A DNA stretch of 64,000 nucleotides from Gammaproteobacteria bacterium (GTDB lineage: Bacteria > Pseudomonadota > Gammaproteobacteria > Eutrophobiales > Eutrophobiaceae): positions 466,681-530,680 of the forward strand of contig OZ245331.1 in assembly GCA_965226155.1 (NCBI GenBank). Reading direction: 5' to 3'. The notes beneath the pieces were generated by a model. The model saw only the letters and a list, made by a program, of their open reading frames with translations. It made no database searches and was not told where the DNA came from. Positions 24,367-54,225 of the stretch are shown here, one piece after another. The translations under genes were made by a program, and so were the position numbers. Each line of letters begins with the position of its first letter. The first letter of the stretch is position 1.

Positions 24367-24367
24367 T

Positions 24368-25402: not shown

Positions 25403-25424
25403 ATCTTGCCCATATAAGTTGTTT

Positions 25425-31412: not shown

Positions 31413-31515
31413 ACATCAATACTTCATTGACTTCAATTGAATATGAAATTCAATGACAAAATATTAAATGATTACTCTGAAACTTTTATTATGCATATTT
31501 TCTGATATTAAATAT

Positions 31516-32582: not shown

Positions 32583-32595
32583 CGATTTCATTTAA

Positions 32596-33848: not shown

Positions 33849-34916
33849 CGCGGATTCAACTTTGAAGTGCAACGTTGATGTTAAAAAAGACTTCATGTGG
33901 TGTTTTTGAATTAAGTGTTTTTCTGGGACGGTGATTGAGTTTTTCCATGACCAAGTTTAACTGCTTTTGTGTAATCGTGCTGAAGTCCATTTTCTTTGGG
34001 AAGTACTGTCGAATGAGACCATTGATATTTTCATTTAAACCCCGTTCCCAGGAGGCATAAGGATGTGCAAAATAGAACCCCGCGTTCAATTGTTGAGCAA
34101 TAACCTCATGCTCAGCAAATTCTTTTCCATTATCCGAGGTGATCGTGTGAACCGACGCCTTCATATTAGACAACAATCGCACGATAGCTTGCCTGACGGC
34201 AGAGGCAGTTCGTCGTTTCACCTGTGCAATCAAGGTGTACATCGACTTGCGCTCGCTCAAGGTGACCAGCGCCTGTCGATGGCCTTTGCCGATGACGGTG
34301 TCCACTTCCCAGTCACCGATGCGTGTCTTCCTGTTCACAATGGCTGGACGCTTATCAATGCTGACCTGATTCACCAGAACCCCACGACGTTGATAACTAC
34401 CATAACGCTTCTTTCGTTTCTTCTGGCAACGCAAGTACCGGTACAGCTCACCGCCGTCTGCCTTGTCCTGGTATATGTAGTGATATATCCATTCATGACT
34501 CAGAGCGATACCTTCTCGTTTATGCAACCAGTCACTGATTTGCTCAGGACTCCATTCGTCCCGCAGCCAGACCTCTACTCGCTCCCACAAGGTCGTGGGG
34601 AGTCGCTGTTGTTGGCTGGCTTCTCGACGCGCTTGCCGGAGCAACTGAGCTTGGCGGGGTCGATAGCCTCTCAAGCCACGGTTGCGTCTGAGTTCACGGC
34701 TAATAGTAGATTTATGCACGCCTATCAAGGCGGCTATCTCCGTTTGTGTATGTCCTGCTTTCATCAGGGCGTAAATCTAGTAACGTTGATGCTCGGTAAG
34801 CTGTGTGTAGTGTCTCATCTGTGCCTCTCTTTCTTGCTGGAACGAAAGGTAAGGATGCTACCGCACCTTGCCGTTCGTGCCACCTAATTGAGTTGCACTT
34901 ACAAATTGAATTCACG
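33849..34916 (-). mobile_element. IS30-family insertion sequence, copy 3 (inverted relative to copies 1 and 2)
   Basis: Reverse complement of the same element; termini found at 33849 and 34916. Confidence 0.85.
33856..34818 (-). pseudogene. IS30 transposase with a premature TAG at codon 14
   Basis: CAG is changed to TAG at 34777-34779 (RYQIYAL becomes RY*IYAL) relative to copies 1 and 2. The ORF track therefore starts at a downstream Met (34764). Confidence 0.75.
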
Positions 34917-35429
34917 CGATATAAAACCAAGGAAAATGGGAACATATCGTAAACGCGTTGAAAATTAGCTCGCCGCAACTTAGACACCAGATACCTAATT
35001 ATGTATTTCTTAGACATAATTGATATCCAGTGTCGCCGTACTTTACTTTCTAGTAATTTAGGTTCAATTACACTATAAGTCAAAGGCATGATATTTATGT
35101 GCTCCATAATAATTTTCTAATAGCAAGAAGTGTATTCGTCACTACACAATTAATTTTCCAATTGTCTTAGTTTTATATGAGATTAGCTGGGAGCAGCTAT
35201 CTAACACTACTGATAATATCCTACAGGCAAATGATAATCCCAATATCCATGATGTGACTGTATAGCCTCTTCTACTGAAATCGGCCCAATTACCATTGTC
35301 GGATGAGCTGTATCAAAGGAAAACATTCTACGAAAGTAAAGATCAAGAAGACGTGATTCGGTGTACCGGCTTCGGATCCTACCGATCCAGGTGAATGATG
35401 ATTTTACGGATGAGTTAGTTTTTACAGAA

Positions 35430-35948
35430 TTAGTAATATGTATTCCAATCATAACTTCTGAACACATCTGTGACAGTTTTTTCTAGTTCTGGGTCAGCAA
35501 TTGGCCCGTGAATAACTACGTCTTTCTTATCATACTCAAAAGGAACACGACATGAGATATTCGTGAACGCATCACTAAAATAAGCGCCAATTTCTATTAG
35601 TCTGACTTCATCTAATGCAAAAACGATTCTACCGATATTTGCCCAATATATGCTACCTGCACACATTAAGCAGGGCTCGACATTGGTGTATATTGTACAA
35701 TCCCAAAGAAAATCAGCATCATATTTAGGTGTTACATTTCTAACGAGCGACACTTCTGCATGTGCCGATTTATCACGTGTAGTTACTTGAAGGTTTTCTT
35801 GTTCAATTAATACTTTGCCCTCAATATCGACTAATATGGCGCCAAAGGGGCAATTGCCTTTTTCAACCGAAATTCTTGCCATGTCATTTGCTCTTAAAAG
35901 GAACGGTTTTTCTCGCTTCATGTCAAATGATTTGTAATTTGATGTCAT
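35430..35948 (-). CDS. CDA-fold deaminase (cytidine/deoxycytidylate deaminase family), paralog of 16656-17153
   Basis: HAEV…EPCLMCAGSI zinc motifs, 172 aa. Confidence 0.7.
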   Translation of the reverse strand: MTSNYKSFDMKREKPFLLRANDMARISVEKGNCPFGAILVDIEGKVLIEQENLQVTTRDKSAHAEVSLVRNVTPKYDADFLWDCTIYTNVEPCLMCAGSIYWANIGRIVFALDEVRLIEIGAYFSDAFTNISCRVPFEYDKKDVVIHGPIADPELEKTVTDVFRSYDWNTYY

Positions 35949-36022
35949 GCTTTATCCTTATATCGTAAATCTACTACCTGACAACATTTCGATACATTCT
36001 CCAACTATTACTTTCTTGTAAA

Positions 36023-37381
36023 TTACGGATTGATATAGCTCCATAGCCCGCGGATTAACAGACCCTTCACCAGTTTTTTTCGGTATCCTGCAGATCCCCG
36101 AATATCGTCGATGGGTGAACATTCCTCAACCAGCCTATCCGCAGCTGCCAATACCAATTCTTCCGTTAATGGTTTAGACATCAGATATGCTTCAGTCTTA
36201 GGTGCCCGAACAATCGTGGGCGCTACAGCACCCAGGGCAATCTTTACATCAGATAAACGGTCGTTTCCCAGATAGCCGCGAAATGAAACTGAGGCAATAG
36301 CGATGGTTTGCGTCCGGCGCGGACCCATTTTTTCAAAGAAACTCACCTCAGCAGCGTTTTTACTAAGCCGTTTCGGAATTATGATTTCGGTAATGATTTC
36401 ACCATGCTCCAAGATAGACTTCCCCGGGCCAGTGGCAATTTCTTCAGTCAATACGGTTCGCACCCCTGTTGAAGAGCGAATGACTGCCGTTGCACCTAAC
36501 ACAATCAAGACAGGCACGCCGTCTGCCGACGGCGAAGCATTGGCCAGATTACCTCCCAGTGTGCCAAGGTTTTGGATTTGCACCGCACCAACTTCGCGTG
36601 ATGCATGAACAAGTATTTTTGCCCATTGCCGAATAGCAGCGGAGTCAATAATGTCACTGTAGGGCGTTGCTGCACCAATAGCGATGATGTCATTCTCTTC
36701 GCGAATAAAATTCAAAGCTGTAATAGCACTAAGATCAATATAACGATATTCCTTCAGATGGTGTTCATATTGAACGCTAATATCCGTGCTACCACAGACG
36801 ACTTTATAGTCATCGTCCTGTTCGAGCAGATCAAGCACTTCATCCAGTGAATCAGGGCGTACAAAACTGTCATTAGCACAACGGGTATTTTCGTTAGCGT
36901 AGTCTTTCGCAGGAGCCTGCTCGGACACAGCTTGACTAGCAGCAACGCAAGCATCAACGATTTTGGTATAACCCGTGCAACGACATAAGTTACCTGCCAA
37001 TGCATCCCTAATCTCATCCCGGCTTGGTGAAGTATTTCGGTTCAGCAAAAAATGCGTAGCAATGATGAAACCCGGCGAACAAAACCCACATTGTACTGCA
37101 CCACTATCTGCAAATGCCTTTACCACATGTTTGCCAATCGGGTCATCGAGCATCGCTTCGACGGTAACAACGTCCTGTCCATTGACCTGGCCTGCCAAGG
37201 TCATGCATGAGGTGATCGGACGGCCGTTCAACAATATCGAACAAGCGCCGCACTCACCCTCGCCGCAACCATATTTGCTGCCGCGCAAACCCAATTTTTC
37301 TCGCAATACAAATAGCAAAGTCTCGCGCGGATCGATATCAACAGTTTGTTGTTGGCCATTAAGCGTAAATTCAACTTCCAA
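36023..37381 (-). CDS. Xanthine-dehydrogenase-family FeS/FAD subunit (fused CoxS-like 2x[2Fe-2S] and CoxM-like FAD domains; XdhA-like)
   Basis: N-terminal CGEGECGACS…C and CGFCSPGF cluster motifs are followed by a FAD-binding domain, 452 aa. The start overlaps the upstream large-subunit gene by 11 nt. Confidence 0.85.
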   Translation of the reverse strand: MEVEFTLNGQQQTVDIDPRETLLFVLREKLGLRGSKYGCGEGECGACSILLNGRPITSCMTLAGQVNGQDVVTVEAMLDDPIGKHVVKAFADSGAVQCGFCSPGFIIATHFLLNRNTSPSRDEIRDALAGNLCRCTGYTKIVDACVAASQAVSEQAPAKDYANENTRCANDSFVRPDSLDEVLDLLEQDDDYKVVCGSTDISVQYEHHLKEYRYIDLSAITALNFIREENDIIAIGAATPYSDIIDSAAIRQWAKILVHASREVGAVQIQNLGTLGGNLANASPSADGVPVLIVLGATAVIRSSTGVRTVLTEEIATGPGKSILEHGEIITEIIIPKRLSKNAAEVSFFEKMGPRRTQTIAIASVSFRGYLGNDRLSDVKIALGAVAPTIVRAPKTEAYLMSKPLTEELVLAAADRLVEECSPIDDIRGSAGYRKKLVKGLLIRGLWSYINP

Positions 37382-39629
37382 GCGATAATCTCCCTAATAC
37401 TCTTTCTGAAGTTAAAGGGATCTGGGTAAATCGCTCACCGATCGCATCATAGACTGCATTCAAAATAGCCGATGGTGTTGGCACCATTACAACTTCCGCA
37501 ATACCTTTTGCGCCGAATGCCGTTTGCGGATCGGGATCTTCCACAGCCGTGGTAACAATCTCATCAGGGACATCGATGATATAAGGTACAATATAAGTAG
37601 ATAAGGCAGTGTTCAACACCTGTCCATTTTTCATCAGACAATCTTCCATCAGGGTATAGCCAATGCTCTGCGCAATCCCCCCCTCGGATTGTCCTTCAAA
37701 TCCCTGTTGGTTTATCACTTTACCGGCATCAATCGCGCTTTGGATTTTCAGGATGCTGACCTTGCCAGTTAACAAATCGACTTCAACTAACACCGCCTGG
37801 GCACAATAGGTAAATACCCCGACGTTAATATCATCCGTGTTGTCTTCGGGGTTTCCCTGATATATGCGTACTTGTCCACTACCCGATAATCTTCCGAGTT
37901 TCAGTAAGGATATGGTCCGACCAGTATCAATATTTTTACCACAATTACCTACCACTACCACTTTGTCGGTTTCGCAATTCAACTGGTCTGCAATTTTTTC
38001 AATAATTTTATGATGTAAATCTCGAGACGCTTTTACTAATGCTTTACACATAATGAACGTAGTACGCACAGCATCACATGCCCCGCTATCCGGCCCGGCT
38101 GAATCGCCGATGTGAACCTCAACCTGTTCAATCGGACAATTCATTTCTTTAGCTGTTATTTGCGCAAAAACCGTAGCGTTTCCCTGTCCCATATCGACAC
38201 CTCCGATTAATACTCGATACTTTCCTACTTCCGTGATATCAATCTGTACTTCGGCAGAGTCTGGTATGCCGTGTCCATAGCCATTAACCTTCCACGCTGC
38301 TGCAACGCCTACCCCGCGTTTTTTCCAGTACATTTGGGGTGAAGACAAAGCTTTAAGTTCATTCTGTTGAGTGTAGATAGTTCCTTTTTCAATCTCGTTG
38401 AGTACTTGATTCAGGCTGCTACTGTTCGAATCAAAGTCGAAGCCCCCCGGAGCTTGTTGTCCTGGAATCAAACCATTTAGACGTCGAAATTCAATGGGAT
38501 CGAAACCCAATTCCCGCGCCATCGTATCCATCTGCAACTCGATACCGAACGTGCCCTGTAATCCGCCAAAACCCCGAAACGCACCGGAAATGCAATTGTT
38601 GGTATAAACACAATACGCATCGAGTTTCACATGGGGAATATAGTAAGGACCAAGACAGCATTTCGTCGCTACGTACAGCACCTCTTCACCCCAAGAGGCA
38701 TGAGCACCAGTATCAGCAATCATACGAAGTTCTGCAGCTAATAACTTACCATCTGCATTGCAGGCAATTTTGTACCGTGAATAAAAAGGATGCCGTTTTG
38801 GTGTTGCAATGATGCTTTCACTGCGATCAAGCATTATGTAACAGGGCCGTCCAGTTAGATACGTCACCAATGCTAGATGGCACTGCACATTGAAGTCGTC
38901 CTTACCACCAAATGACCCGCCTACCATGGGTGTTAGCACTCGAACGTCATTTTGTGGAATCGCTAAAAAATCGGCAATCTGAGTTTGATCACGATGTGGG
39001 TATTGTCCACCGTGTCGAATCGTCAGACAGTGCTGTTCGTCGTAAAACGCGACACCGGCTTCTGTTTCCATTGGTACATGTTCTTGACGCCCGGTGACAT
39101 ACTCATTTTCGAAAATATAATCTGCCTGCGCGAATGCGGCCTCGACATCACCATGCCCAGTATGTATTTCACTTAAAATGTTGCCGCCCGGATGGATTTT
39201 GGATGCATCCTTCTTCATCGCTTCACGTGCATCGGTCACAACGGGCAACGAATCATACTCTACCTCCACTATGTCGCGTGCTAGCATTGCGGCTTCTTCT
39301 GTTTCTGCGGCGATGATGGCCACTGCATCCCCAACACAACGCACGCGATCCTCACATAATACTGGTGCGTCTTGACGAACCACCCCTACACCATTTTTAC
39401 CTGGGATATCCTTTGCCGTAAATATTCTGACGACGCCAGGCACCTGTTCTGCATTGTGGTAGTTAATTGAAAGTATGCGGGCATGTGGGTCGGCGGCACG
39501 TAGGATACGAAGTCTTAGCATACCCTCCACCACATAATCTGACGGATAAACCTGGTTGCCAGTCGCTTTGGCTACACCATCAATACGTTTTGCCGGATCC
39601 CCAATCTGGGGTACAGTATCTTCAATCAT
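37371..39629 (-). CDS. Xanthine-dehydrogenase/aldehyde-oxidase-family molybdopterin-binding large subunit
   Basis: 752 aa with Ald_Xan_dh conserved blocks (…GGSFGGK…, …AGHASWGEE…). Confidence 0.85.
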   Translation of the reverse strand: MIEDTVPQIGDPAKRIDGVAKATGNQVYPSDYVVEGMLRLRILRAADPHARILSINYHNAEQVPGVVRIFTAKDIPGKNGVGVVRQDAPVLCEDRVRCVGDAVAIIAAETEEAAMLARDIVEVEYDSLPVVTDAREAMKKDASKIHPGGNILSEIHTGHGDVEAAFAQADYIFENEYVTGRQEHVPMETEAGVAFYDEQHCLTIRHGGQYPHRDQTQIADFLAIPQNDVRVLTPMVGGSFGGKDDFNVQCHLALVTYLTGRPCYIMLDRSESIIATPKRHPFYSRYKIACNADGKLLAAELRMIADTGAHASWGEEVLYVATKCCLGPYYIPHVKLDAYCVYTNNCISGAFRGFGGLQGTFGIELQMDTMARELGFDPIEFRRLNGLIPGQQAPGGFDFDSNSSSLNQVLNEIEKGTIYTQQNELKALSSPQMYWKKRGVGVAAAWKVNGYGHGIPDSAEVQIDITEVGKYRVLIGGVDMGQGNATVFAQITAKEMNCPIEQVEVHIGDSAGPDSGACDAVRTTFIMCKALVKASRDLHHKIIEKIADQLNCETDKVVVVGNCGKNIDTGRTISLLKLGRLSGSGQVRIYQGNPEDNTDDINVGVFTYCAQAVLVEVDLLTGKVSILKIQSAIDAGKVINQQGFEGQSEGGIAQSIGYTLMEDCLMKNGQVLNTALSTYIVPYIIDVPDEIVTTAVEDPDPQTAFGAKGIAEVVMVPTPSAILNAVYDAIGERFTQIPLTSERVLGRLSLGS

Positions 39630-39796
39630 AGATGATATCTAACCTAAATTTAGTCTAGGCTCATACACTATTCAATTATATTATATTGTCAAATACATAA
39701 TATTTATGTTGATTATATATATTCTCTAATATCATATATTACCAGATAGACTAAGCTGAATTTTAATAAGCTTGTTCAACCAGTTACAGGGCGAAA

Positions 39797-41047
39797 ATGT
39801 CTAAATCAAATGAAATTGTAGGTTTGCACGTGAAAAATACAGAATTTACCGGCACGCCGTTCAGCGACAGAACGTCACAGTTAAATTATATCAATCAACG
39901 CTATGTTGCCTGGGATATCTATCATATTGTTGATGTTTTTTCGTCTGTTCGTGAGGAACTTAAAGCCATAAGAGAAGCAGTTGGAGTCATTGAAATGTCT
40001 CCACTCTCCAAATACGACATAACGGGTTCCGATGCGGAACGTTACGTTAATTATCTAATTATCCGTGATGCTACTAAGATTGAAGTAGGTCAAATTTATT
40101 GGGCTGCCTGGTGTGCTCATGACGGTAAAATTATTAGCGATGGAATGATTTTCCGCTTAGCGAATAATCATTTCCGTATTACCGGGGATCCTAGTTATAA
40201 CTGGTTTTTAGAGAATAAGAAAGAGTTTGATATTGAGATAAAAGATATTACTCACGAACGAGGTATCCTTTCATTACAGGGACCAAAATCTCGTGAAGTA
40301 CTTGAAGCTGCGATTGGTGAAGATTGGGCAGAGTTTAAATTCTCCCGGGTTCGAATGGCAAGGATAGGAGGTGTAGAAGTTGAAATAGCACGTCAGGGAT
40401 TTACCGGTGAGCATGGATACGAATTATGCGTCGCTAAGAAAGATGGTATTCCGATGTGGGATGCCGTAATGGAAGCCGGTCGAACCTACGGTATTAAGCC
40501 CTGTGGATTAGAAGCAGAAGGTATTGCCCGTATGGAAGCAGGATTGATTATTCCTGGGCCAGATTATACAAAGGGCGGAACGGTCGATGATCGTGGTGCT
40601 GCTGTAAAAGTGGAAAAAGAAAATACTGTAACGCCTTTCGAATGCAGAATGGGAAAATTTGTTGATTTTGATAAAGGAGACTTTATTGGCAGATCAGCAT
40701 TATTGAAGGAAAAAGAAGAGGGGATTAAAAATGATATGATTGGTTTGTTAATAGACTGGAATGGAATTGCCGACTTATACACTCAACAGAATCTCCCTCC
40801 CCAGGTACTAGCAACGTCAATATGGGTGCCGCTGCCTGTGATGAAGGACGGAAAGAAGATTGGTCGAGCGACCAGTACTGCCTTCAGTCCGGCTGCAAAT
40901 AGTGTTGTAGCTTTCGGATTTCTCAAGAAAGAGTATTGCGTACCTGGAACGAAAGTGTCAGTTGAGTTTAAGGTTGACAATTTAGTCGGTCTAATTGATG
41001 CCAAAGTGGTGAATTTGCCTTTCCTTGAACTCAAACGTGGCGCCTAA
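39797..41047 (+). CDS. Glycine-cleavage-T/aminomethyltransferase-family (folate-binding) protein, candidate THF-dependent demethylase
   Basis: GCV_T-like fold blocks, 416 aa. Divergent from the molybdoenzyme operon. Confidence 0.7.
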   Translation: MSKSNEIVGLHVKNTEFTGTPFSDRTSQLNYINQRYVAWDIYHIVDVFSSVREELKAIREAVGVIEMSPLSKYDITGSDAERYVNYLIIRDATKIEVGQIYWAAWCAHDGKIISDGMIFRLANNHFRITGDPSYNWFLENKKEFDIEIKDITHERGILSLQGPKSREVLEAAIGEDWAEFKFSRVRMARIGGVEVEIARQGFTGEHGYELCVAKKDGIPMWDAVMEAGRTYGIKPCGLEAEGIARMEAGLIIPGPDYTKGGTVDDRGAAVKVEKENTVTPFECRMGKFVDFDKGDFIGRSALLKEKEEGIKNDMIGLLIDWNGIADLYTQQNLPPQVLATSIWVPLPVMKDGKKIGRATSTAFSPAANSVVAFGFLKKEYCVPGTKVSVEFKVDNLVGLIDAKVVNLPFLELKRGA

Positions 41048-41085
41048 TTATCTCGGTTAAATGACAGCTGCAGGTTAGAATCGTC

Positions 41086-42111
41086 ATGACAATGCCATTT
41101 AATCAAGAATTGGTTCGATCTTTCCCCAAGGTCGAGCTTCATATCCATGTAGAGGCCTGTATCAGCGCAGAACGAATAGAGTTACTGTCCAGGGATGCCG
41201 GCGTATCCATGTTACGACCACGGGAGCAGCTATTTGAGTTCGAATCGCTGGCGGAATTCCTGGAGGTATTCGAGTGGTGGTGTGACCTGTTACGAACACC
41301 GGAAATCGCCGAACATATCGCCTACGACACCGCCAAACTGTTACACGACGATGGTATTGTCTACGCGGAAGTCCTGACCGGCCCCAGGTACTGGACACGG
41401 CTGGACTACAGGGAACTAATACCCGCTCTGGGGAGGGGCTACGAACGCGCCTTCCATGACGGCTATACGGATTGCTGTATCACCCCGTCTATCAGCCGGG
41501 AACAATCGGTAGACTGGTCCAACGAATTACTGGACTGGATCGAAAAAGAGAATCCTGCTCGCGTAGTAGGACTCGGGCTTGATGGTAATGAAGAGATGCT
41601 GGGGCGCACCTGCCCGAAATTCGAACAGGTTTTTAAACGTGCACACTCGTTGGGACTTGGCCGGACCGCTCATAGCGGGGAATCATCCGGTCCCGAAGGT
41701 GTCTGGGATGCCATTAACTACCTGAAGCTAGACCGTATCGATCATGGCGTACGGGCGGGCGGTGACCCTGAACTGGTACAACGCCTGGCGGAAGATCAGA
41801 TAACTTTGAATATCTGTCCAACATCCAACGTCCTGGTAGGTCTGTACGATTCCATTTCAGACATGCCCATCAGTGATTTTATCGAAGCAGGTGTGCCGGT
41901 AACGATCAATTCCGATGATCCGGAAACAATGAATACGCGGCTCAGCCGCGAGTTCCAGCTTGTAGGTGAAGACCTGAACTGGTCGATCAATGATGTAGCT
42001 GATCTTACACGCAATGCGATCAATGCCGCATTTTGTGATGAGCACAAGGCTTCCGAATTGCACGGGCAGCTGGACGAGTTTATGGTCAACCTGGACGAAA
42101 CCGGATTATAA
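41086..42111 (+). CDS. Adenosine/adenine deaminase-family protein
   Basis: The PKVELHIHVEA metal motif and later HSGES and SDDP blocks, 341 aa. Confidence 0.75.
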   Translation: MTMPFNQELVRSFPKVELHIHVEACISAERIELLSRDAGVSMLRPREQLFEFESLAEFLEVFEWWCDLLRTPEIAEHIAYDTAKLLHDDGIVYAEVLTGPRYWTRLDYRELIPALGRGYERAFHDGYTDCCITPSISREQSVDWSNELLDWIEKENPARVVGLGLDGNEEMLGRTCPKFEQVFKRAHSLGLGRTAHSGESSGPEGVWDAINYLKLDRIDHGVRAGGDPELVQRLAEDQITLNICPTSNVLVGLYDSISDMPISDFIEAGVPVTINSDDPETMNTRLSREFQLVGEDLNWSINDVADLTRNAINAAFCDEHKASELHGQLDEFMVNLDETGL

Positions 42112-42212
42112 GCTGATATCCCAATGTGTCACAGGTTACGCCACGGTCTTTTAGGCAATTGATGATTCATAGTTGCGTTGATGAAACTCAGCATTCATTT
42201 CTATCCTCTAGA

Positions 42213-43622
42213 TCAAACGTCTGCATAGTCCGCATGATTGCGAACGATCATCCGTTTCCCCTCTCTCAGCTCCGTCTCGTAGAAATCCTTGAACTCATTT
42301 AGCCCTCGGGTGACGCGTTCCCATAGATCGTCTTCATCCAATTCAGTGAACTTCCCGTTATGTCTGAGCAATTTTCCATCGACCATTACATCGTGAGTTT
42401 CCCCACCAGGGCCCTGCATGACTAGCCCTGCAATAATAGATGATTCCATATGTGGGAAGAGATTGCTGTCACGGCTGATATCGTAGGTGATCATGTCCGC
42501 CCGTTTACCAACATCAAGTGTGCCGATTTTATCTTCAAGGTGTAGCGCACTTGCACCTCTCGTCGTAGCCAGTTCCAGTGGTGTCCAGGGATGTTCCAAA
42601 TGGTGTTCTCGATCAGTTGTATCCTGAAGTTGCCAAGCTGCCTGCATAGCACGAAAAATGTTATGTGAGGCGTGGTCGGTACCAACACCTACCCGCATCC
42701 CTTTATGTAACATGTAAGCGACGCGTGTGTTTTCTCTATAATCCGGGCAACGAAGTGGGTTAAAAGCAACCGATACATCAAGATCGGCAAGCATGTCAAT
42801 CTGTTCATTGTTAAATGCAATTCCATGCCAGAGTATTGTTCGTGGAGTCAATACTCCCAGTTTCTGCAAGTGTTTCATGTAGCCACCGTCACTGGCCCAG
42901 AGTTTGTCACACTGTTCCATTTCGGGAACCCCCTCCCCGATATGAATGCCGAACGGTAAATCAAGCTGTTCAGCCAACTCTATCCCTTTGACAAGAATAT
43001 CTGTTTCGATATTCCAGGGAGCATCAGGACCTATGCCCACTTGCACGCGACCGTCCGGATCATGATACTTGGCTACCGCCTTTTCAATATTGGCAAGCTG
43101 AGCCGCTCCATCCTTTGCATCCTTTCGCTGGAAAGTAGTGAGCACATTGACATGGTTAATAGCGCGTGCGCCAGAGTCTAATATTGCCCGCGTTGTTGTA
43201 TCAGCCCATAGAAAATTATTGCTGGACGTGGTTGTGCCGTTTTTAAGCATATGTGCTTGACCAAACAGGGTAAGATCATAGGCGACTTCTTCAGAGTACC
43301 ATGCGACCGCTGGCCAAAAATAAGTATCCAGAATCTCTTCAACTGAAGGAATTACAGTATAATCCGCGTAGTTATAACAGACCATAGATCCCCATTCGCC
43401 AATATGTGCATGCGCATCAACAAGACCGGGCATTAGCAGTTTACCCTTGCCATCGACGACCGTTACCTCATTTATTTCTTCAATCTGGTCCAAGACTTCT
43501 GTAGTTTTTCCTACAGCTTTAATCGTGTTTCCTTCAACATAAACACTGCCACCCTTTATGACGTCTTTCGGTCTTGGTCGAACAATTACAAATTCAAAAT
43601 CTTTGAATAAATATTTTTGCAT
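42213..43622 (-). CDS. Amidohydrolase-family protein (TRZ/ATZ deaminase/chlorohydrolase-like)
   Basis: PGLVDAHAHIGE HxH motif, 469 aa. Confidence 0.75.
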   Translation of the reverse strand: MQKYLFKDFEFVIVRPRPKDVIKGGSVYVEGNTIKAVGKTTEVLDQIEEINEVTVVDGKGKLLMPGLVDAHAHIGEWGSMVCYNYADYTVIPSVEEILDTYFWPAVAWYSEEVAYDLTLFGQAHMLKNGTTTSSNNFLWADTTTRAILDSGARAINHVNVLTTFQRKDAKDGAAQLANIEKAVAKYHDPDGRVQVGIGPDAPWNIETDILVKGIELAEQLDLPFGIHIGEGVPEMEQCDKLWASDGGYMKHLQKLGVLTPRTILWHGIAFNNEQIDMLADLDVSVAFNPLRCPDYRENTRVAYMLHKGMRVGVGTDHASHNIFRAMQAAWQLQDTTDREHHLEHPWTPLELATTRGASALHLEDKIGTLDVGKRADMITYDISRDSNLFPHMESSIIAGLVMQGPGGETHDVMVDGKLLRHNGKFTELDEDDLWERVTRGLNEFKDFYETELREGKRMIVRNHADYADV

Positions 43623-43784
43623 AGTCTGAAATATTTTAATTTAGATGGGTATCTTCTATATCAGCGAACAAGTTGTCTCATAGTAATAGTTTTTATGTTA
43701 TGGAGGGTATAATTGCGTGAAATTATGGTAAATTGTAATATCGATGGAATAAAGCACCAATTTGGTTGCGGTATTGACCTAAGT

Positions 43785-44948
43785 TCATTTAACATTTTCA
43801 GATTTTGGCATTCCCAGTTGACGTGCAACGTATATTAATAATATCCAGGCAGACATTGCAGTAATTGCCACACTCACTCCGAATCCCTCGTAGCCATAAT
43901 ACTCGATCATCGTCCCCGCAAAAGCTGGCCCCCCTGCAAAACCCAGGAGATACGCGCTACCTGCCGCTGCAGCCCATCGCCCATGTTCATCCAAGGCCGC
44001 TGCCAGGCCAAACAGGTAGGGCACCGAAAAATAGAAAAGTACTGATATCAACATCAGGGTAATGACATACACAACATGGTGAGTATTTATACAGAGGATA
44101 ATGTCCAATATTGAAATAGCGACGCAGAAAATAGTGATTGGTATTAAACGTCCTATACGTACGTTTAACCAAGCAGCCAGACCTGCACCAGCAACACCAA
44201 CTATCGATCCGGCCGTAAGAGCGTAACCGATCTGTATCGTGTTTAGACCAGAGCGTTCTCCCAATGGGGCAGTAAAAGTATAAATTGCAGCTGACGGTAC
44301 GAGATAAAGAAAAATACCTGCTAATGTCAAAATGCCCATTATTGGTCGAGTTTCATGTACATCCGTGTCTGCTATTATTTGCTTAGCTTTGTTTTCTTTC
44401 GGAAGCCAATAAAGAAAAACAACAAGCAACATCGAGATAATCACAATCATGCCGTAAATACCTTGATGTCCATACATTTCGATTAGGTTTCCCCCTAACG
44501 CGAACAAGAAAATGCTTGATATTGCCCAGGTCACCTGGACGTAACTATATAACTTGTCAGGATTGCTTGAATGTGACGCCACTGCAGCCAGTGATGCACC
44601 ATATACTAGGCCTTCTCCTATTCCGGCAATACATCTTGTAGTCACAAATGCACTTAGAGTAGGTAAAAAAAGAGAAACAAATTGGGCCGTGATGGCAAGC
44701 CCCGCTGCAGAGAGGCACAAAGAACGGTAGGAAAATCGCGATAAAAAGGGTGCAATAGCGATTGCCGTCACTGATAACACCATAAATTCAGCAAACACGA
44801 CATAGCCTGCCTGTTGATGTGTCAGGTCCAGCCCAATCTTTACACCTCCGACCACCAGGGGAGACATTTGTGTAACAAGGGCACCAATTATTTGTGCAGC
44901 AATCACCGCTATGACAAACATCTTAGGGTCTTTATTTTGACTTTGCAT
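43785..44948 (-). CDS. MFS transporter
   Basis: 387 aa with about 12 hydrophobic helices. Confidence 0.7.
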   Translation of the reverse strand: MQSQNKDPKMFVIAVIAAQIIGALVTQMSPLVVGGVKIGLDLTHQQAGYVVFAEFMVLSVTAIAIAPFLSRFSYRSLCLSAAGLAITAQFVSLFLPTLSAFVTTRCIAGIGEGLVYGASLAAVASHSSNPDKLYSYVQVTWAISSIFLFALGGNLIEMYGHQGIYGMIVIISMLLVVFLYWLPKENKAKQIIADTDVHETRPIMGILTLAGIFLYLVPSAAIYTFTAPLGERSGLNTIQIGYALTAGSIVGVAGAGLAAWLNVRIGRLIPITIFCVAISILDIILCINTHHVVYVITLMLISVLFYFSVPYLFGLAAALDEHGRWAAAAGSAYLLGFAGGPAFAGTMIEYYGYEGFGVSVAITAMSAWILLIYVARQLGMPKSENVK

Positions 44949-45083
44949 TTTTATTATTGAAATAATAGTAATGTTTTGTTATCCGGCAATGAAATATTCT
45001 CAGATACAAAAAACGGGGTTGTCCTGAATAGGACAACCCCGTTATGAGAAAGAAACAGATATTTTGTTAGTTATATTTCTGCA

Positions 45084-47321
45084 TTACCAGCTATAGACAA
45101 TCTCACCACCAAAAGTCCTTGGAGGATTAGGTACGGACGTCATGAAGCCGTTAGTTGCGAGGTCAAAAGATTCAACACGATATTTTGTATCAGATAGATT
45201 CCTAGCCCAAAGGGCCACTTCGATATTTTCGTCCTGTGTAAGCCAGGCAAGCCTGCCACCGATTAGCCAGAAAGGTTTATTAGCGGCTTCTTTTCTATTG
45301 TCAATCGTATGAAACGTTTTATCTGTCCAACTCCAGCTAAAGGACGCTGCCATTTTGCCATCCATAAGCGCCGGGGTTGCCCAGTCATAGCTGGCCAGGC
45401 CAGTAAACTTCCACTGCGGTGTATATACGTTGGTATTGCCTTCCAGGTCTGTATCCGGATTACCAAAGAAACCTTGCAGAACAAACGCTTTGAACTCCGT
45501 TTCCAGATAACTTAATCCAAACAGTAGATTAAGTCCGTCTAGCGGGTTAACGGTGAACTCGGCTTCACCTCCGTAGTAGGTGGCCTCGGGGACATTGGCG
45601 AGTCTGTTTACCTGGAAACCAAAGGCTCTTCCCGTATCAAATATCTGCACGTCTTCATAGTCATAGTAGAAACCGGAGACATTCAGTCGGGCACGGCCCT
45701 CCCAGAGGGTCGATTTAAAGCCCCCCTCCCATGCCAGTATTGTTTCTTTATTATAGGGGCTAAATTCTGCAGCATCACCAAAACCAGTACCCACACCGCC
45801 ACTCTTATAACCAGTACCTACACTGGCATAAACCAGCCAGTCTTCGTTTGGAGTATAATCAAGGCCGACCTTCCAGGACGTATTTACAAAAGTATTAGCA
45901 GCGCTTGACATATCAAGGGGAAATGTGAAAGGGAGGGGACCGCCAGGGGTCGCCGGGACGCCACCGATAGACTCGTGATCGAGCATGACATCATCCATCG
46001 TATAACGTAATCCGGCGCTTATCTTCCACAGGTCGTTTATCTGATAACCAGCATTCCCAAATAAGGCGAAGGCTTCTTGTTCCTGATGCAAGGTTTGAAT
46101 AGTAGTGAAGTTGCCAAATGTATTAAAAAGATAAGTATTATCTGAATCCAGCTCGTCTGCCGAGAAGTAAATACCTAGCAACCAATCCCAGGGCCCGTCT
46201 GTGGTGGAGGTTAGGCGCAGTTCCTGCGACCAGCCATCTACTTCATGATTATAAAAATTATGAGACAAATTAAAAGGAGAGGCATCATCATCGCCTCCGT
46301 AGTCTCGTGAATATTTTGTCCATGAGGAAATCGATGTCAACTCCATGTTCTCTAGTCCCCACTCAACGCGTAATGATGTCCCTAAGCCTTCATTATCGAC
46401 TGTATCTATAAGATCAAACTCGCCTTCTGTGGGATCACCCCGCTCCTCAAACCCATCTGGATCCTGGTAGCCGGTGAAGTCGATACAGTCATCCCTGACC
46501 GCGCCGTTACAGCGACCAAAGAGAATATTCGGATCTGCCGCACCTATATGTTGATAGCTAAAGCTATCCGACTTGTCCTGGGAACCACTTACCGTCCACA
46601 AGAACGACAGATTTTCCTGTGGCGTCCACTCCAGCTTAGCGCGCCAGGAATAAAAGTCCGTTGCATTCACGTCCTCACCAGTAAGCCGATTTAACATCCA
46701 GCCGTTGTCGTTACTGGATTGAAAGGCCACGCGTCCGGCCAAGGTGTCGGTTAAGCCGCCGGATACCGCGCCTTCTAGATGTAGCGCATCGTAATTGCCA
46801 TAGCTTACCTTGCCGTATCCTGAAAACTCCTTGGTCGGGTTGGCCGTGATGAAGTTGATCGCACCAGCTGTGGCATTACGACCGTACAATGTCCCCTGGG
46901 GTCCCCGCAGCACCTCAATTCGTTCCATATCGAAGGTCTGCATGGTTTGCATGAAAGTGTTAAAAAGATAGACTTCATCAACATATACGCCGACTGTGGT
47001 TTGTGTATTCGCATGAAAGTCGACCGAACCGGACCCACGTATCCAGATTTTGGCCTGCTGGTTGCCGAACACTGCCCGCATTTCAACACCAGGGATAAAC
47101 TGGCCCAAATCGTTTGAATTGGCTAAACCAATATCATCGAGAACATCTGATGAAAATGCCGTAATCGCTATGCTGACATCCTGGATACTTTCCTCTCTCT
47201 TCTTTGCCGTGACGATTATCTCTTCAAGTAAATCGGAATAAGAAGGCAAAGGTGTCAATAGACAGATTACAATAAAGAATATTGAAAAGTGCTTCATTTT
47301 AAAGCTACTAATAGGCTGCAT
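45084..47321 (-). CDS. TonB-dependent outer-membrane receptor
   Basis: Signal peptide, TonB box LEEIIVTAKKRE (near-identical to the box of the 5199 receptor), C-terminal …EIVYSW. Confidence 0.85.
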   Translation of the reverse strand: MQPISSFKMKHFSIFFIVICLLTPLPSYSDLLEEIIVTAKKREESIQDVSIAITAFSSDVLDDIGLANSNDLGQFIPGVEMRAVFGNQQAKIWIRGSGSVDFHANTQTTVGVYVDEVYLFNTFMQTMQTFDMERIEVLRGPQGTLYGRNATAGAINFITANPTKEFSGYGKVSYGNYDALHLEGAVSGGLTDTLAGRVAFQSSNDNGWMLNRLTGEDVNATDFYSWRAKLEWTPQENLSFLWTVSGSQDKSDSFSYQHIGAADPNILFGRCNGAVRDDCIDFTGYQDPDGFEERGDPTEGEFDLIDTVDNEGLGTSLRVEWGLENMELTSISSWTKYSRDYGGDDDASPFNLSHNFYNHEVDGWSQELRLTSTTDGPWDWLLGIYFSADELDSDNTYLFNTFGNFTTIQTLHQEQEAFALFGNAGYQINDLWKISAGLRYTMDDVMLDHESIGGVPATPGGPLPFTFPLDMSSAANTFVNTSWKVGLDYTPNEDWLVYASVGTGYKSGGVGTGFGDAAEFSPYNKETILAWEGGFKSTLWEGRARLNVSGFYYDYEDVQIFDTGRAFGFQVNRLANVPEATYYGGEAEFTVNPLDGLNLLFGLSYLETEFKAFVLQGFFGNPDTDLEGNTNVYTPQWKFTGLASYDWATPALMDGKMAASFSWSWTDKTFHTIDNRKEAANKPFWLIGGRLAWLTQDENIEVALWARNLSDTKYRVESFDLATNGFMTSVPNPPRTFGGEIVYSW

Positions 47322-47894
47322 GGTTATTCCCCCGAGCTAGTTATTGTTTCCCAACATGCATCTTAAACAAACAGTATATATAGAGTATAAATTAATACTT
47401 ACCAGTTCATTCGTCAAAGACGTAATATATATGGTAATTATAATGAAATACTAATATCAGAATTCATTCGAAAAAGCTAGCTGTACTAGGTCAAAGTCAG
47501 GCTAGTAGGTGGGCGGGCTTCTTGATTATCACAGGATAAAACCTGGAAGTTGCTATGTGGGGGAAGAACTTTTCTGATACAACCTTTCGCGTAGAAACCT
47601 TTGATACTTCTGGTGCTGGTCGGATCAAAACAGTTCCAAACAGGCCGGGATCATTTGGTGGGGAAAATTGCTTTTAGCTGGTAATATTCTAAGCTACACA
47701 ACCAAGGCCACGAGGACGATATTTTATATTGCGCGGTAACCTACAATTTACTATATGTTTGAAAAATTAAAGTGGATTAATTTGATACTTGAATGTATAT
47801 AGATGTTCAATTACACCACGTAATCTTTACTCGCTGTAATTAATAGTTACAGGATTATTAACTCAACAAGCATAGTGATCGAAAATAATTACAT

Positions 47895-50776: not shown

Positions 50777-51880
50777 GTGATCATCATGACCATGCCGACT
50801 AATTGGGCACCGTCCAAAAATCAACTTCTCGATCTGTCTCGTGAGTACACAACAGAAGGCGAGCAAAGAATCTACGAAATGTACAGGCACTTCTGGCATC
50901 CCGTTGCTTACACCCATGACCTACAGCCGGATATAATGAACCACCAACTTCTGCCGGAACCATTAAAAGTGACCCTGTGTGGTCAGGATCTTGTGCTGGT
51001 GAAATTGAACGGCGAGATTCAAGCTTTCAATGATGTCTGTCCACATAAAGGAACAAGATTGTCTCTTGGTAAAGTTGTCGAAGGACCTGATGGGAAAGAA
51101 GCACTGCGCTGTGGTTATCATGGCTGGCAGTACGATATTAATGGTCAATGTACCCATATCCCGCAACGCCCGGACCTAGTCGGAAAGGTACGGGCCTGTG
51201 TCAAACCCTATCAGACTAGGGTAGCTTATGGCATGGTATGGGTTTGCCTGGAAGATGAATCCCATTTTTCATTCCCTGAGTTTCCCGAATGGAACGATCC
51301 GGAGTGGACCTTTCTGCCGGTGCCAGCCAGCAACTGGAACGTGGCAGCAACACGACGAATAGAAAACTATTGTGACCTGCTTCACTTCGCCTTTGTCCAT
51401 GACAAGTTCCTTGGCGAGATCACTGAGCCAGAAATACCTGAGCATAAAGTCTGGCGAGAGGATCCCGGTGTCTTGCGGATGACTTTTGATAAAATAACGA
51501 CCTACCGTGAAGGTCCCCCTGGTGCTCGACCCTTAGCAAAACGCAATTATCACATCTACATGCCAACGACGATACATCTTCACGTAGAGTCGGATGGGGC
51601 AAAGTATTTACTTTTTTTCCACCCGTCCCCGGTGGGTCCGAAGGAGGTCCGGAATTTCACTATTGCCGGTAGCACTTATTCCTCTCACGAGACCCTTTAT
51701 GAAGATCTGATCACGGTTGCGGAATTGACTTACGCACAAGACAAGGCATTGGTTGAATCGCAACGCCCGGAAATGTTGCAGGAAGATATTTCCTTTGAAA
51801 TGTATTTGAAGGATGCTGACACATTTACCCTGAACTATCGAACATGGCTAGTTGAACTTGCAAAGGAACTGTCTGAATGA
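50777..51880 (+). CDS. Rieske non-heme iron oxygenase alpha subunit, VanA/NdmA-type (about 365 aa)
   Basis: Rieske motif CPHKG…CGYHGW together with the mononuclear iron site (…HFAFVHD…). The probable start is ATG 50786 after AGGTGA. Confidence 0.8.
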   Translation: MIIMTMPTNWAPSKNQLLDLSREYTTEGEQRIYEMYRHFWHPVAYTHDLQPDIMNHQLLPEPLKVTLCGQDLVLVKLNGEIQAFNDVCPHKGTRLSLGKVVEGPDGKEALRCGYHGWQYDINGQCTHIPQRPDLVGKVRACVKPYQTRVAYGMVWVCLEDESHFSFPEFPEWNDPEWTFLPVPASNWNVAATRRIENYCDLLHFAFVHDKFLGEITEPEIPEHKVWREDPGVLRMTFDKITTYREGPPGARPLAKRNYHIYMPTTIHLHVESDGAKYLLFFHPSPVGPKEVRNFTIAGSTYSSHETLYEDLITVAELTYAQDKALVESQRPEMLQEDISFEMYLKDADTFTLNYRTWLVELAKELSE

Positions 51881-52065
51881 AAGTAACACTTGATAAGAAA
51901 AAGTGCATGAACTCTGGCATGTGTACTCAAGCTGCTCCTAAAATTTTTGAGATGGATGATGAAGGCGAACTAGTTATTTTAATTGAAGATGTCACTGATG
52001 AGCACCTTGGGGACGTAAAAGATGCAGTTGCATGTTGCCCCACCAACGCATTGCAACTCAAGTAG
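51877..52065 (+). CDS. Small single-cluster ferredoxin ([3Fe-4S]/[4Fe-4S] type)
   Basis: 62 aa with C-x2-G-x-C…CP cysteines. Overlaps the upstream stop (ATGA). Confidence 0.7.
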   Translation: MKVTLDKKKCMNSGMCTQAAPKIFEMDDEGELVILIEDVTDEHLGDVKDAVACCPTNALQLK

Positions 52066-52973
52066 TTCCTAATTTTAATACCATCCAAGTTGATACTTTA
52101 TCGACATTTCAGATCGATACCACTGTGAATGCGAAAGATGACAAAATAGTCTGGAACACTTGGTATCCCATTGGTGTTCCATCTGAGTTAGCGTATCGTG
52201 GCGCTACACATACCCGCTTACTTGATCATGAGATTGAGCTTCAAATTAAACTGCCACATCTTTCGGCAAGATGTGGAGGCAAAACACTACCACTGATAGA
52301 ACAGCTCGGTTATGTTTGGACGACACTCGGAGATCCTGAAATTTCTCCACAAAGATTACCTGAGTATGATGAACCAGATCGGTTCGTTATGAATGTTTTT
52401 TCGAGCCCGATAAAAAGCTGCGGGTTGCGGATGGTCGATAACGTCCTCGACAATGCACATTTTCCATTTGTACATCCTGGGATTCACGGTGATGAAGATC
52501 ACTTGGAGTTGAGCACTCATGAAACCTCTGTTGATGAAAACGGGGTCCTATGGTCTCACTCTCGCGAACGCTGGTATCCGTTAACGCAATCCATGGCAGT
52601 GTATTCGTATCGTGTCTCCAACCCATATTCCGTCATACTGTTAATTCATCGACCAATAATTAAGGGACAAGAACAACGCTATGATTTCGTAGGAGTTTTT
52701 ACGCAACCTACTAGTGAGGAAAACTTTATTCTTCATAAGATGTATGCCGGTGTTAAAGAAAATTGGACGGAACAGACTCAAATGCGCGCTGATGAACAAT
52801 GGGTCGCAGTTCAGGACAAGTATGTAATCGAAAAACACAACCCCAAAAAACTCGTAATCGATGAAAATTATGAATCTTCCATTTCTTCTGTCGATACTGC
52901 CTCTCTTGCATATCGAAACTGGCTTCGAGAAAACCATGTGCAGTATGGTGTTATTTATGAGAAAAGCTTCTGA
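52032..52973 (+). CDS. VanA-like oxygenase catalytic subunit lacking Rieske cluster ligands (NdmC-like)
   Basis: Retains the WYPIG…SEL N-terminal signature and the D-x2-H-x4-H iron site (DNAHFPFVH). The Rieske CxH/CxxH positions read …LPHLSARCGGKT…. The start may be internal (GTG 52122 gives about 283 aa). Confidence 0.65.
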   Translation: MLPHQRIATQVVPNFNTIQVDTLSTFQIDTTVNAKDDKIVWNTWYPIGVPSELAYRGATHTRLLDHEIELQIKLPHLSARCGGKTLPLIEQLGYVWTTLGDPEISPQRLPEYDEPDRFVMNVFSSPIKSCGLRMVDNVLDNAHFPFVHPGIHGDEDHLELSTHETSVDENGVLWSHSRERWYPLTQSMAVYSYRVSNPYSVILLIHRPIIKGQEQRYDFVGVFTQPTSEENFILHKMYAGVKENWTEQTQMRADEQWVAVQDKYVIEKHNPKKLVIDENYESSISSVDTASLAYRNWLRENHVQYGVIYEKSF

Positions 52974-52975
52974 CG

Positions 52976-53575
52976 ATGACTACATCTAATTCTGCTCCGA
53001 TAGCACTGGAGCGAGAAGTTTTTCCCAGAAACTTAATACGTGTAGGATTCAATGACAATGAATTCGTTCTTTGGAGGGATGACAATAATAAAATACAAGT
53101 TTGGGAGGATCGTTGCCCACATCGAAGCATACGATTGAGCGCTGGACGGAATCTCGGCGATGGTATTCAATGCATTTACCATGGTTGGAAATTTAATTGT
53201 AATGGCTTCGTCATTGACATTCCCGCGGGAAGAAATCAACCGTTGCCCAAAATTAACGTGATGGTGATAGCAAGCAAAACTATTGATGGATTTGTATGGG
53301 TATCATCAGACGATGAAGTGCTTATCCCCCCTGATTTTGCTCCAGACAACAACGATGTGCTATTGCGACCTATATCCGTGAATGCTTCGGCTAAAGTGAC
53401 GCAGAATTTGCTGGACCAGGAATACGACATCACTCTGATTGCCACACCCACAAGCAATGACTTCTGCACCATTTTTGGTTATGCCCCACCTTGTGATAAT
53501 AAATCACCATTAGAAACGGCCCGCTATTGGAATAGTATGTTGACTACAACAAGACGCTTGCTAGAAACTGGTTAA
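52976..53575 (+). CDS. Stand-alone Rieske [2Fe-2S] domain protein
   Basis: CPHRS…CIYHGW motif in 199 aa with no catalytic iron motif. Starts 3 nt after the Rieske-less subunit. Confidence 0.75.
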   Translation: MTTSNSAPIALEREVFPRNLIRVGFNDNEFVLWRDDNNKIQVWEDRCPHRSIRLSAGRNLGDGIQCIYHGWKFNCNGFVIDIPAGRNQPLPKINVMVIASKTIDGFVWVSSDDEVLIPPDFAPDNNDVLLRPISVNASAKVTQNLLDQEYDITLIATPTSNDFCTIFGYAPPCDNKSPLETARYWNSMLTTTRRLLETG

Positions 53576-53580
53576 ATCTA

Positions 53581-54225
53581 ATGATCGAACTTTACGACTA
53601 TGCCCTTTCAGGTAACTGTTATAAAATACATCTGTTACTTAAGTGGCTAAAATTAGATTATAAAAAAATACCAATCGATTTCTATCCGGGTGTTGAGCAC
53701 AAGTCCGATGCCTTTCTTGAAATTAACCCACTAGGGCAACTTCCTGTATTGCGGGATGAGACATCGGTTATCCGCGATGCGCAGGCAATATTGGTACATC
53801 TGGCAACGACCTATGATAATTCGGGTAAGTGGTATCCACTAAATCACTCTGAATTGCTTGGGCAAATTCAAAGTTGGCTTGCGTTTGCTGACTCTATTAC
53901 CGCTACTTGTTCGGCTGCTCGATTACACGATGCAATGTTTTACACAATAAATATACACAAAGCCCGGCATGATGGAGAGCATTTACTAAGGATTTTGGAC
54001 GAGCATCTTTGGTTTCGTGAACAAGAAAATGCTGACTGGATCTGTACAGATAGACACCCATGCATTGCTGACATAGCATGTTTTCCCTATGTCGCACTCT
54101 GTGAAGAAGGTGGAATTTCACAACTACCATTTCCAGCAATTCAACGTTGGCTGCAAAGATTTATGCGAATTAATGATTTTGAACCAATGGCAGGGATGAT
54201 GCCACTAAAAATGGCCAGTCTTTAG
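53581..54225 (+). CDS. Glutathione S-transferase-family protein (NdmE-like position)
   Basis: A thioredoxin-like N-domain (MIELYDYALSGNCYKIHLLL…) followed by a helical C-domain, 214 aa. Confidence 0.75.
   Translation: MIELYDYALSGNCYKIHLLLKWLKLDYKKIPIDFYPGVEHKSDAFLEINPLGQLPVLRDETSVIRDAQAILVHLATTYDNSGKWYPLNHSELLGQIQSWLAFADSITATCSAARLHDAMFYTINIHKARHDGEHLLRILDEHLWFREQENADWICTDRHPCIADIACFPYVALCEEGGISQLPFPAIQRWLQRFMRINDFEPMAGMMPLKMASL

Follow-up and report, generated by a model that had tools for sequence, protein, structure and literature searches.

The window analysed here is a stretch of 64 kb (64,000 nucleotides) from contig OZ245331.1 of a Gammaproteobacteria bacterium, and it carries on the minus strand a gene pair that is a real and intact two-gene molybdenum hydroxylase of the xanthine oxidase family. 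Sequence comparison places the enzyme in a rare and uncharacterised PucD-related branch of the xanthine dehydrogenase (XDH) family, found mostly in uncultured marine metagenome-assembled genomes (MAGs). The reversed order of the two genes and the lack of a linked chaperone gene are real and non-random, and they are not peculiar to the window genome. For the function we propose, with roughly even confidence, a heteromeric purine-ring hydroxylase of this PucD-related clade, which would serve the catabolism of purines or methylpurines.

Structure and integrity of the gene pair

The large subunit gene (37371..39629, minus strand) encodes a 752-aa molybdenum cofactor (Moco) protein related to PucD and E. 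coli XdhA, assigned by Pfam, NCBIfam and its Mo-site residues. The small subunit gene (36023..37381, minus strand, TTG start) encodes a 452-aa protein in which two [2Fe-2S] domains are fused to an FAD domain, assigned by Pfam, alignment with XdhA and eight cysteines. The two genes share 11 nt (37371-37381), and the same overlap is present in the related loci L001 and L003. An earlier reading of this DNA without database searches (the sequence-only reading) had described this order, Moco gene first and iron-sulfur (FeS)/FAD gene second with an 11-nt overlap, and the coordinates of the open reading frames (ORFs) and the Pfam results agree with it.

Pfam models Ald_Xan_dh_C, MoCoBD_1 and MoCoBD_2 (PF01315, PF02738 and PF20256; E-values 9e-27 to 5e-81) matched the 752-aa protein, which has the a/b hammerhead and the two Moco-binding domains of the xanthine oxidase family. 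The 452-aa protein matched Fer2, Fer2_2, FAD_binding_5 and CO_deh_flav_C. Its translation keeps all eight [2Fe-2S] cysteines in the motifs C-x4-C-x2-C-x11-C, C-x2-C and C-x-C, and it is predicted to carry the two [2Fe-2S] clusters and the FAD domain that mark the family. Both ORFs are full length and their homologs align from end to end. The dN/dS values against close strains were 0.19-0.32, which indicates purifying selection on both genes. Among the relatives, the small subunit gene is split in L002, and one related contig has the Moco gene in pieces of 257, 305 and 158 aa.

An AT-rich intergenic region (39630..39796, GC 35%) separates the Moco gene from a divergent GcvT-like gene, and in L001 an insertion sequence (IS) has entered this region, with a Transposase_mut gene at that point. 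An Rfam scan for purine, xanthine and Moco riboswitches gave nothing at the gathering threshold in the whole window, and nothing even at E<=1 in 34500-48200.

Family placement of the two subunits

The top NCBIfam model for the large subunit was pucD (TIGR03196) with 560.2 bits, below the cutoff of 783.65, and clade relatives scored 501-634 bits against the same model. The E. coli-type XdhA model gave 449 bits. A tight grouping with bona fide XdhB, part of what the sequence-only reading had named as refuting its view, was not seen: TIGR02965 (xanthine_xdhB) gave 316.3 bits and its cutoff of 849.5 was not reached, and R. capsulatus XdhB scored 218 bits. In the PDB the large subunit matched the E. 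barkeri nicotinate dehydrogenase (NDH; 3HRD) with 320 bits for NdhL (3.7e-94) and 161 bits for NdhM, followed by 4-hydroxybenzoyl-CoA reductase (308 bits), bovine XDH (230 bits) and the R. capsulatus XdhB. Readings as 4-hydroxybenzoyl-CoA reductase or aldehyde oxidoreductase, prompted by PDB and NCBIfam scores, were dropped for want of a matching context. The small subunit aligned end to end with R. capsulatus XdhA (1JRO_A, 180 bits). Because the large subunit is nearest to the pucD model while the small subunit aligns with R. capsulatus XdhA, the enzyme is, by these alignments, of a hybrid layout with a PucD-like large subunit and a Rhodobacter-like fused small subunit.

The closest known large subunits are PucD of B. 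subtilis-type PucCDE and XdhA of E. coli XdhABC; the latter is also 752 aa long and its gene also comes first. These systems differ from the window in having separate FAD and FeS proteins, in the order FAD>Moco>FeS or Moco>FAD>FeS, whereas the small subunit of the window is fused and encoded downstream. They differ also in their maturation genes, as XdhC-like and MocA-like genes are linked to PucD-like loci and, in E. coli, yqeB and mocA lie ~9 kb from xdhABC. The Rhodobacter enzyme (XdhAB-XdhC, 1JRO) shares the fused FeS-FeS-FAD layout of the small subunit, but there the FeS/FAD gene, the Moco gene and xdhC stand in sequence, whereas the window has the two subunit genes reversed and no xdhC. 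The overall cofactor chain is the same as in Rhodobacter XDH and eukaryotic xanthine oxidoreductase (XOR), although the large subunits of both are only distantly related to that of the window (218-230 bits). The E. barkeri NDH is the best-scoring solved structure, but it has four subunits with the Moco subunit split into L and M, whereas the window encodes a single 752-aa subunit.

Gene order and distribution of the clade

The window's own proteins were used to annotate 88 loci, and a neighbour-joining tree was made from the large subunits. The window grouped with L001, L003, L005, L006, L007, L008 and L012, and more distantly with L037 (a Mesorhizobium MAG) and L039 (the cultured Salinihabitans flavidus DSM 27842). 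In all ten clade loci, window included, the Moco gene is followed by a fused FeS-FAD gene, mostly with overlap. The reversed order is therefore not a trait of this locus alone; it is clade-wide and occurs also in distant cultured Proteobacteria. Other loci had other orders: FAD>Moco>FeS in Bacillus/Paenibacillus, FeS..FAD>Moco in Caldisericota and Moco>FeS>XdhC>FAD in Myxococcales.

A collection of 5.8 billion proteins had ~55 clusters at least 46% identical to the large subunit, nearly all of them metagenomic. Below 46% the identity dropped to 40-44%, and those relatives stand in loci with PucD-like gene orders (Bacillota, Caldisericota, Myxococcales). Among the best 80 loci from 185,579 GTDB species representatives there were four above 45% identity, so at least four such representatives exist: the Gammaproteobacteria MAG RHO3_bin_19 (74%), the Acidimicrobiia MAG SB0668_bin_6 (61%), a Rhodobacterales MAG (57%) and a Caldilineaceae MAG (48%). 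The labels RHO3, ROBB21 and ENGE20 suggest, from the names alone, an origin in sponge metagenomes. In the plasmid collection the best matches were less than 40% identical and had other architectures. Examples are a Moco fusion in Rhizobium whose FeS subunit is separate, and a cluster in Sulfitobacter that includes 6-hydroxynicotinate reductase. Literature searches on XDH in sponge symbionts, on marine methylxanthine demethylation and on 7-methylguanine catabolism turned up no description of the clade.

Maturation genes

The Pfam families for XdhC had no match among the window ORFs of at least 120 aa, which were scanned except for a few overlapping a stronger call. In a stricter test, E. coli YqeB, PaoD and MocA, taken from annotated records, were compared with all six-frame ORFs of at least 40 aa, and there was no match in the 64-kb window even at E<=10. 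The same queries recovered XdhC-family genes in 56 and MocA-like genes in 35 of 74 outgroup loci, so the search itself works. Within 10 kb, neither XdhC nor MocA was found in any of the ten clade loci (window included), and the difference in linked XdhC, 0/10 against 56/74, has a Fisher p of ~5e-6, uncorrected for phylogeny. The absence of an xdhC-like gene noted by the sequence-only reading thus holds for the whole window and, to 10 kb, for every clade relative. A sulfurated (cyanolysable S) cofactor, as in the xanthine oxidase family, would be supplied either with the help of a chaperone whose gene lies elsewhere or along a chaperone-free path.

At the end of the window (61175-63965) an FdhD-type sulfurtransferase adjoins a bis-MGD molybdopterin oxidoreductase, which the window boundary truncates; the two make up another molybdoenzyme system, distinct from the operon and equipped with a maturation factor of its own.

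Active-site residues

For residue mapping, a human XOR fragment, confirmed against PDB 2CKJ, was aligned to the family. Gln768, Arg913, Phe915 and Glu1262 of human XOR, conserved also in Rhodobacter XDH, correspond to Q209, R352, F354 and E712 of the window protein and were invariant in 47 aligned sequences. The catalytic residue Glu1262 is thus matched by Glu712.

The Glu/Arg pair of true XDHs, which the sequence-only reading had put forward as a check, is absent: Glu803 (bovine 802) is Asp244 and Arg881 (bovine 880) is Val320. The check is not diagnostic here. The Arg880 equivalent is absent from every group of the PucD-related superclade that we compared; Bacillus/Paenibacillus pucCDE-like proteins have Phe there, most of the rest have Leu, and E. 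coli XdhA has Ala. Because Arg is absent from all the groups compared, the pair cannot sort xanthine enzymes from others in this lineage, and in these alignments its absence is compatible with XDH activity. Because the Arg880 equivalent is absent and Glu802 is Asp, the substrate binding mode of the XDH structures is not transferable to the window protein. The Glu802-equivalent position varies among subclades (D, E, L or Y), and the Asp after the GGK motif is shared with the PucD-like groups; E. coli XdhA has Gln at this position.

Three further replacements set the window protein apart from human XOR: Leu874 to Trp313, Phe1010 to Tyr451 and Val1012 to His453. Among the groups compared, Trp313, Glu315, Tyr451 and His453, all at predicted pocket positions, were confined to the window's close clade, with the Trp and Tyr found also in one neighbouring subgroup. 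The residues of PucCDE and XdhABC at the 313, 451 and 453 positions are not those of the window. In sister members located next to plain purine genes, positions 313, 315, 451 and 453 are occupied by Leu, Pro, Leu and Ala, respectively.

Neighbourhoods of the related loci

The neighbourhoods of the clade are purine-centred and repeatedly hold demethylation systems. Bmp-type ABC transporters occurred near L005, L006, L007, L037, L039, P0023, P0030, P0039 and L096. An adenine deaminase stands beside the clade member of L007, an inosine-uridine nucleoside hydrolase with a HAD phosphatase beside that of L008, a PuuD urate oxidase in L006 and phosphoribosyltransferases in L003.

Demethylation genes recurred beside members of the Trp/Tyr type in four forms: Rieske oxygenase, GcvT-like, MtmB/corrinoid and 2-oxoglutarate (2OG) oxygenase. 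In L003, three Rieske/VanA_C oxygenases are found together with a reductase, a GcvT-like gene, a 2OG oxygenase and MTHFR. The Rieske oxygenase of L006 had its top PDB matches to NdmB and NdmA (223 and 220 bits) and is accompanied by a reductase and a CDA deaminase. The P0023, P0030 and P0039 contigs (JGI sample 3300072015) carry, beside their clade members, multiple genes for MtmB-like methyltransferases and corrinoid proteins together with the Bmp ABC transporters.

Some of these loci have features of their own. L006 (the Rhodobacterales MAG) holds at 1793-13628 a coherent candidate methylpurine-to-urate cluster, in the order Asp/Glu racemase, PuuD urate oxidase, LysR, CDA deaminase, NdmA/B-like Rieske oxygenase, reductase, unknown 338-aa protein, Bmp, Moco gene and FeS-FAD gene. 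In two of the three P contigs a second Moco subunit gene stands in tandem with no adjoining FeS/FAD gene. In L007 (9755-16800) the Moco gene is immediately preceded by a MoaD/ThiS-like 80-aa ORF, and the locus also encodes a second enzyme, whose fused 479-aa small subunit has its domains the other way round, FAD then FeS. L096 (8821-12501) has a 925-aa FeS-Moco fusion and a separate FAD subunit.

Neighbouring genes in the window

The gene divergent from the Moco gene encodes a 416-aa GcvT-like folate-binding protein (39797..41047, plus strand; Pfam GCV_T and GCV_T_C). No other partner of the operon is as stable: it is kept in L001 as well as in L093-L095, and its specific relatives stand beside Moco hydroxylases in L003, L067 and L100 (284-364 bits), compared with ~80-140 bits for T-proteins. 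In L067, a Chloroflexia MAG, relatives of the GcvT-like protein (364 bits) and of the TRZ-family protein described below (330 bits) flank a Moco hydroxylase of different organisation; L100 is a metagenome contig. The link between GcvT-like genes and Moco hydroxylases is recurrent, not general.

Next come a 341-aa deaminase of the adenosine deaminase (ADA) family (41086..42111, plus strand; TIGR01430 with 253.8 bits against a cutoff of 216.55; best PDB match 3OU8) and a 469-aa TRZ/ATZ-family amidohydrolase (42213..43622, minus strand; Pfam Amidohydro_1; best PDB match the MTA/SAH deaminase 4F0R, 114 bits). Pfam and NCBIfam thus bear out the GcvT-like and ADA-family neighbours named by the sequence-only reading. 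The ADA and TRZ genes form a 2.8-kb segment (41071-43835) present in the window and L001 and absent from L093-L095, and the GC content of the ADA gene is noticeably higher (52-56%). Beyond the segment lie an MFS transporter (43785..44948, minus strand; Pfam MFS_1) and a TonB-dependent receptor (45084..47321, minus strand; Pfam Plug and TonB_dep_Rec_b-barrel), both kept in L001 and L093-L095; a TonB receptor occurs also in L003. The stable core across strains consists of the TonB receptor, the MFS transporter and the GcvT-like, Moco and FeS-FAD genes.

On the other side of the operon, the FeS-FAD gene is followed by the small zinc deaminase that the sequence-only reading had reported, a 172-aa CDA-fold protein (35430..35948, minus strand; Pfam dCMP_cyt_deam_1). 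It keeps the H-A-E and P-C-x2-C zinc/catalytic motifs in comparison with its top PDB match, the B. subtilis guanine deaminase 1WKQ. That match is modest (6e-18, only 68.6 bits), with a mycobacterial CDA-fold deaminase (63 bits) and TadA (53 bits) close behind and no NCBIfam equivalog reached, and a role in converting guanine to xanthine is plausible on this homology. The gap to the FeS-FAD gene is 74 nt with no terminator-like site, and co-transcription by read-through is only plausible as judged from this spacing. As an integral member of the operon the deaminase is ruled out by strains whose proteins are 93-97% identical. In blastn against these strains (L001, L093 and L094) homology ends at 35958, 10 nt upstream of the deaminase ATG, and a TonB-receptor fragment takes the place of the deaminase segment. 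Clusters at 90% likewise had 2 members for the deaminase and 13 for the Moco protein. The linkage of the deaminase is strain-specific, and its junction with the operon is a rearrangement point.

The AT-rich deaminase segment (34917..35957, about 1 kb, delimited by the blastn break and the GC profile) has ~38% GC, compared with 45-50% in the operon. It abuts an IS30 copy (33849..34916, minus strand; NCBIfam transpos_IS30 and self-blast) whose transposase has a premature TAG at codon 14. This is one of three IS30 copies in the window, 99% identical (the others at 25423-26492 and 31515-32584). Related clusters also hold CDA deaminases in loose association, with ~5 kb between deaminase and Moco gene in L003 and L006. 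The Paenibacillus pucCDE-like operons L068 and L071 have a similar deaminase right after the FeS gene and an ADA homolog ~2 kb on.

About 11 kb from the operon, at 50777..54225 on the plus strand, Pfam identified a set made up of an Ndm-like Rieske oxygenase, a VanA_C protein that lacks the Rieske domain, a protein with the Rieske domain only and a GST-like protein. The Rieske+VanA_C oxygenase of this set had NdmA and NdmB as its top PDB matches (6.9e-42). A LysR regulator precedes the set, and the layout of the whole region (49615-54225) is reminiscent of the caffeine pathway with its NdmC, NdmD Rieske domain and NdmE.

Several other parts of the window were also noted. The region 10689-19754 resembles a cluster for creatinine / N-methylhydantoin degradation, with two isochorismatase-family proteins (N-carbamoylsarcosine-amidase-like), hydantoinase B and A, a creatinase-like M24 protein and an amidohydrolase; a second CDA-fold deaminase in it (16656-17153) is 38% identical to the 172-aa deaminase. 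Another transposase, of the rve family, lies at 28158-29192. Split-looking genes occur near the IS copies: a serine dehydratase (29304-30685), of which the window also has an intact paralog (20767-22152), and a luciferase-like monooxygenase (23362-25453).

Proposed function and alternative explanations

As a purine-ring hydroxylase, the enzyme would hydroxylate an oxopurine, whether xanthine/hypoxanthine or one of their N-methylated derivatives, at a carbon of the ring, and electrons would flow from Mo via both [2Fe-2S] clusters to FAD and finally to NAD+ or O2. The substrate may be imported via the conserved TonB receptor and MFS transporter. The GcvT-like folate-dependent protein is a candidate for the methyl-removing enzyme that prepares the substrate, and the NdmA/B-like set, 11 kb from the operon, would be another demethylase. 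In the window strain, the ADA-family, TRZ-family and CDA-fold deaminases may turn aminopurines into oxopurines. The substrate could be xanthine/hypoxanthine after demethylation or a methylpurine directly, between which the sequence cannot choose.

The known system most like such a route is the caffeine pathway of P. putida CBB5 (NdmABCDE), in which N-demethylation is followed by xanthine oxidation; the XDH-type step here would be functionally analogous. NdmA/B-like Rieske oxygenases with reductases stand beside the L003 and L006 members, and the Ndm-like set of the window includes a GST-like gene. The differences are the modest identity to the Ndm proteins, the origin in uncultured marine bacteria and the GcvT-like protein as the conserved partner here.

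Several points weigh against a purine-ring hydroxylase of this kind. The large subunit attained no NCBIfam equivalog cutoff, its top PDB match is a nicotinate dehydrogenase and not an XDH, and the Glu/Arg pair is replaced. The ADA, TRZ and CDA genes vary between near-identical strains. Among 39 metagenome relatives of the GcvT-like protein, only one (L100) was linked to a Moco hydroxylase, the 38 unlinked ones being mostly on short contigs or in a more distant soil group. The neighbour-joining tree carries no support values, and the context correlations are drawn from few, partly non-independent loci.

The sequence-only reading had considered a substituted purine likelier than xanthine itself, and this survived in part. 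In its favour, as real though indirect comparative evidence, are the recurrent NdmA/B-like Rieske, GcvT-like/MTHFR and MtmB/corrinoid genes near clade members, and the pocket substitutions of the close clade that are absent from the other groups compared. The deaminase and ADA neighbours on which that reading had drawn vary between near-identical strains, as does the TRZ gene, and do not support it. Moreover, xanthine/hypoxanthine stays a fully viable substrate because adenine deaminase, nucleoside hydrolase, Bmp and PuuD adjoin clade members.

An ordinary housekeeping xanthine/hypoxanthine dehydrogenase of an unusual lineage, with the demethylase-type neighbours belonging to unrelated routes that share IS-rich catabolic islands, is possible though somewhat unlikely. 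The nearest family model is after all pucD, an acidic residue is retained at the Glu802 position, and members such as L007 and L008 stand beside purine genes without any demethylase, while L037 and L039 have only Bmp transporters and LysR. PuuD in L006, the guanine deaminase-like character of the CDA deaminase and the similar deaminase and ADA genes of L068/L071 fit such an enzyme as well. Against it, the close clade departs from precisely these plain-purine members at W313, E315, Y451 and H453 of the predicted pocket, demethylation genes recur in four forms in the window's part of the clade, and the divergent GcvT-like partner is kept across strains.

If the purine-ring hydroxylase is carried further in this direction, the close clade (Trp313/Tyr451/His453) might represent a dedicated methylpurine hydroxylase of uncultured marine, apparently sponge-associated bacteria. 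It would act in an undescribed pathway that consumes host-type N-methylated purines and would be matured without a dedicated linked XdhC. The demethylation modules would be interchangeable by lineage, with NdmA/B-like Rieske, GcvT-like/MTHFR, MtmB-like/corrinoid or 2OG oxygenase genes in this role. We regard this extension as speculative and unlikely as it stands. The documented products of sponges include N-methylated adenines, guanines and isoguanines, such as 1-methyladenine, herbipoline, methylguanines and methylisoguanines (PMC5793054).

It is quite improbable that the enzyme hydroxylates a non-purine N-heterocycle (nicotinate-/trigonelline-like pyridines, pterins or pyrimidines). The NDH match, the missing Arg880 equivalent, the variable Glu802 position and the many isochorismatase, cyclase, amidase and Rieske genes of the window, which are of a kind typical in heterocycle catabolism, would suit this explanation. 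But the NDH top match reflects sampling, because the PDB has no PucD-type enzyme; an Arg of NdhL is aligned to Val320 of the window protein, and the split of the NDH large subunit is not shared. No nicotinate-pathway genes adjoin the operon, and the genes that recur nearby are specific to purines (adenine deaminase, ADA family, nucleoside hydrolase, Bmp, PuuD, phosphoribosyltransferases). Finally, a decaying, functionless remnant in an IS-riddled, genome-eroding symbiont, to which the three IS30 copies, the other transposases and split genes of the window, the broken subunit genes of L002 and the related contig and the lack of a maturation gene nearby might point, is hardly credible beside two full-length ORFs under purifying selection with all catalytic and cofactor residues retained.

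Significance for the enzyme family

If the assignment holds, the locus would represent a third layout of bacterial XDH-family enzymes, with a PucD-like large subunit, a Rhodobacter-like fused small subunit and reversed gene order, without a linked chaperone or cytidylyltransferase gene and unnamed by the current curated NCBIfam models. If it is merely a divergent XDH, its practical value would lie in better annotation. The locus is also an entry point to the question whether XdhC-type chaperones are dispensable, or act from afar, in some members of the family. As a purine-ring hydroxylase, it would give a testable entry to the catabolism of purines and host N-methylated purines by marine symbionts.

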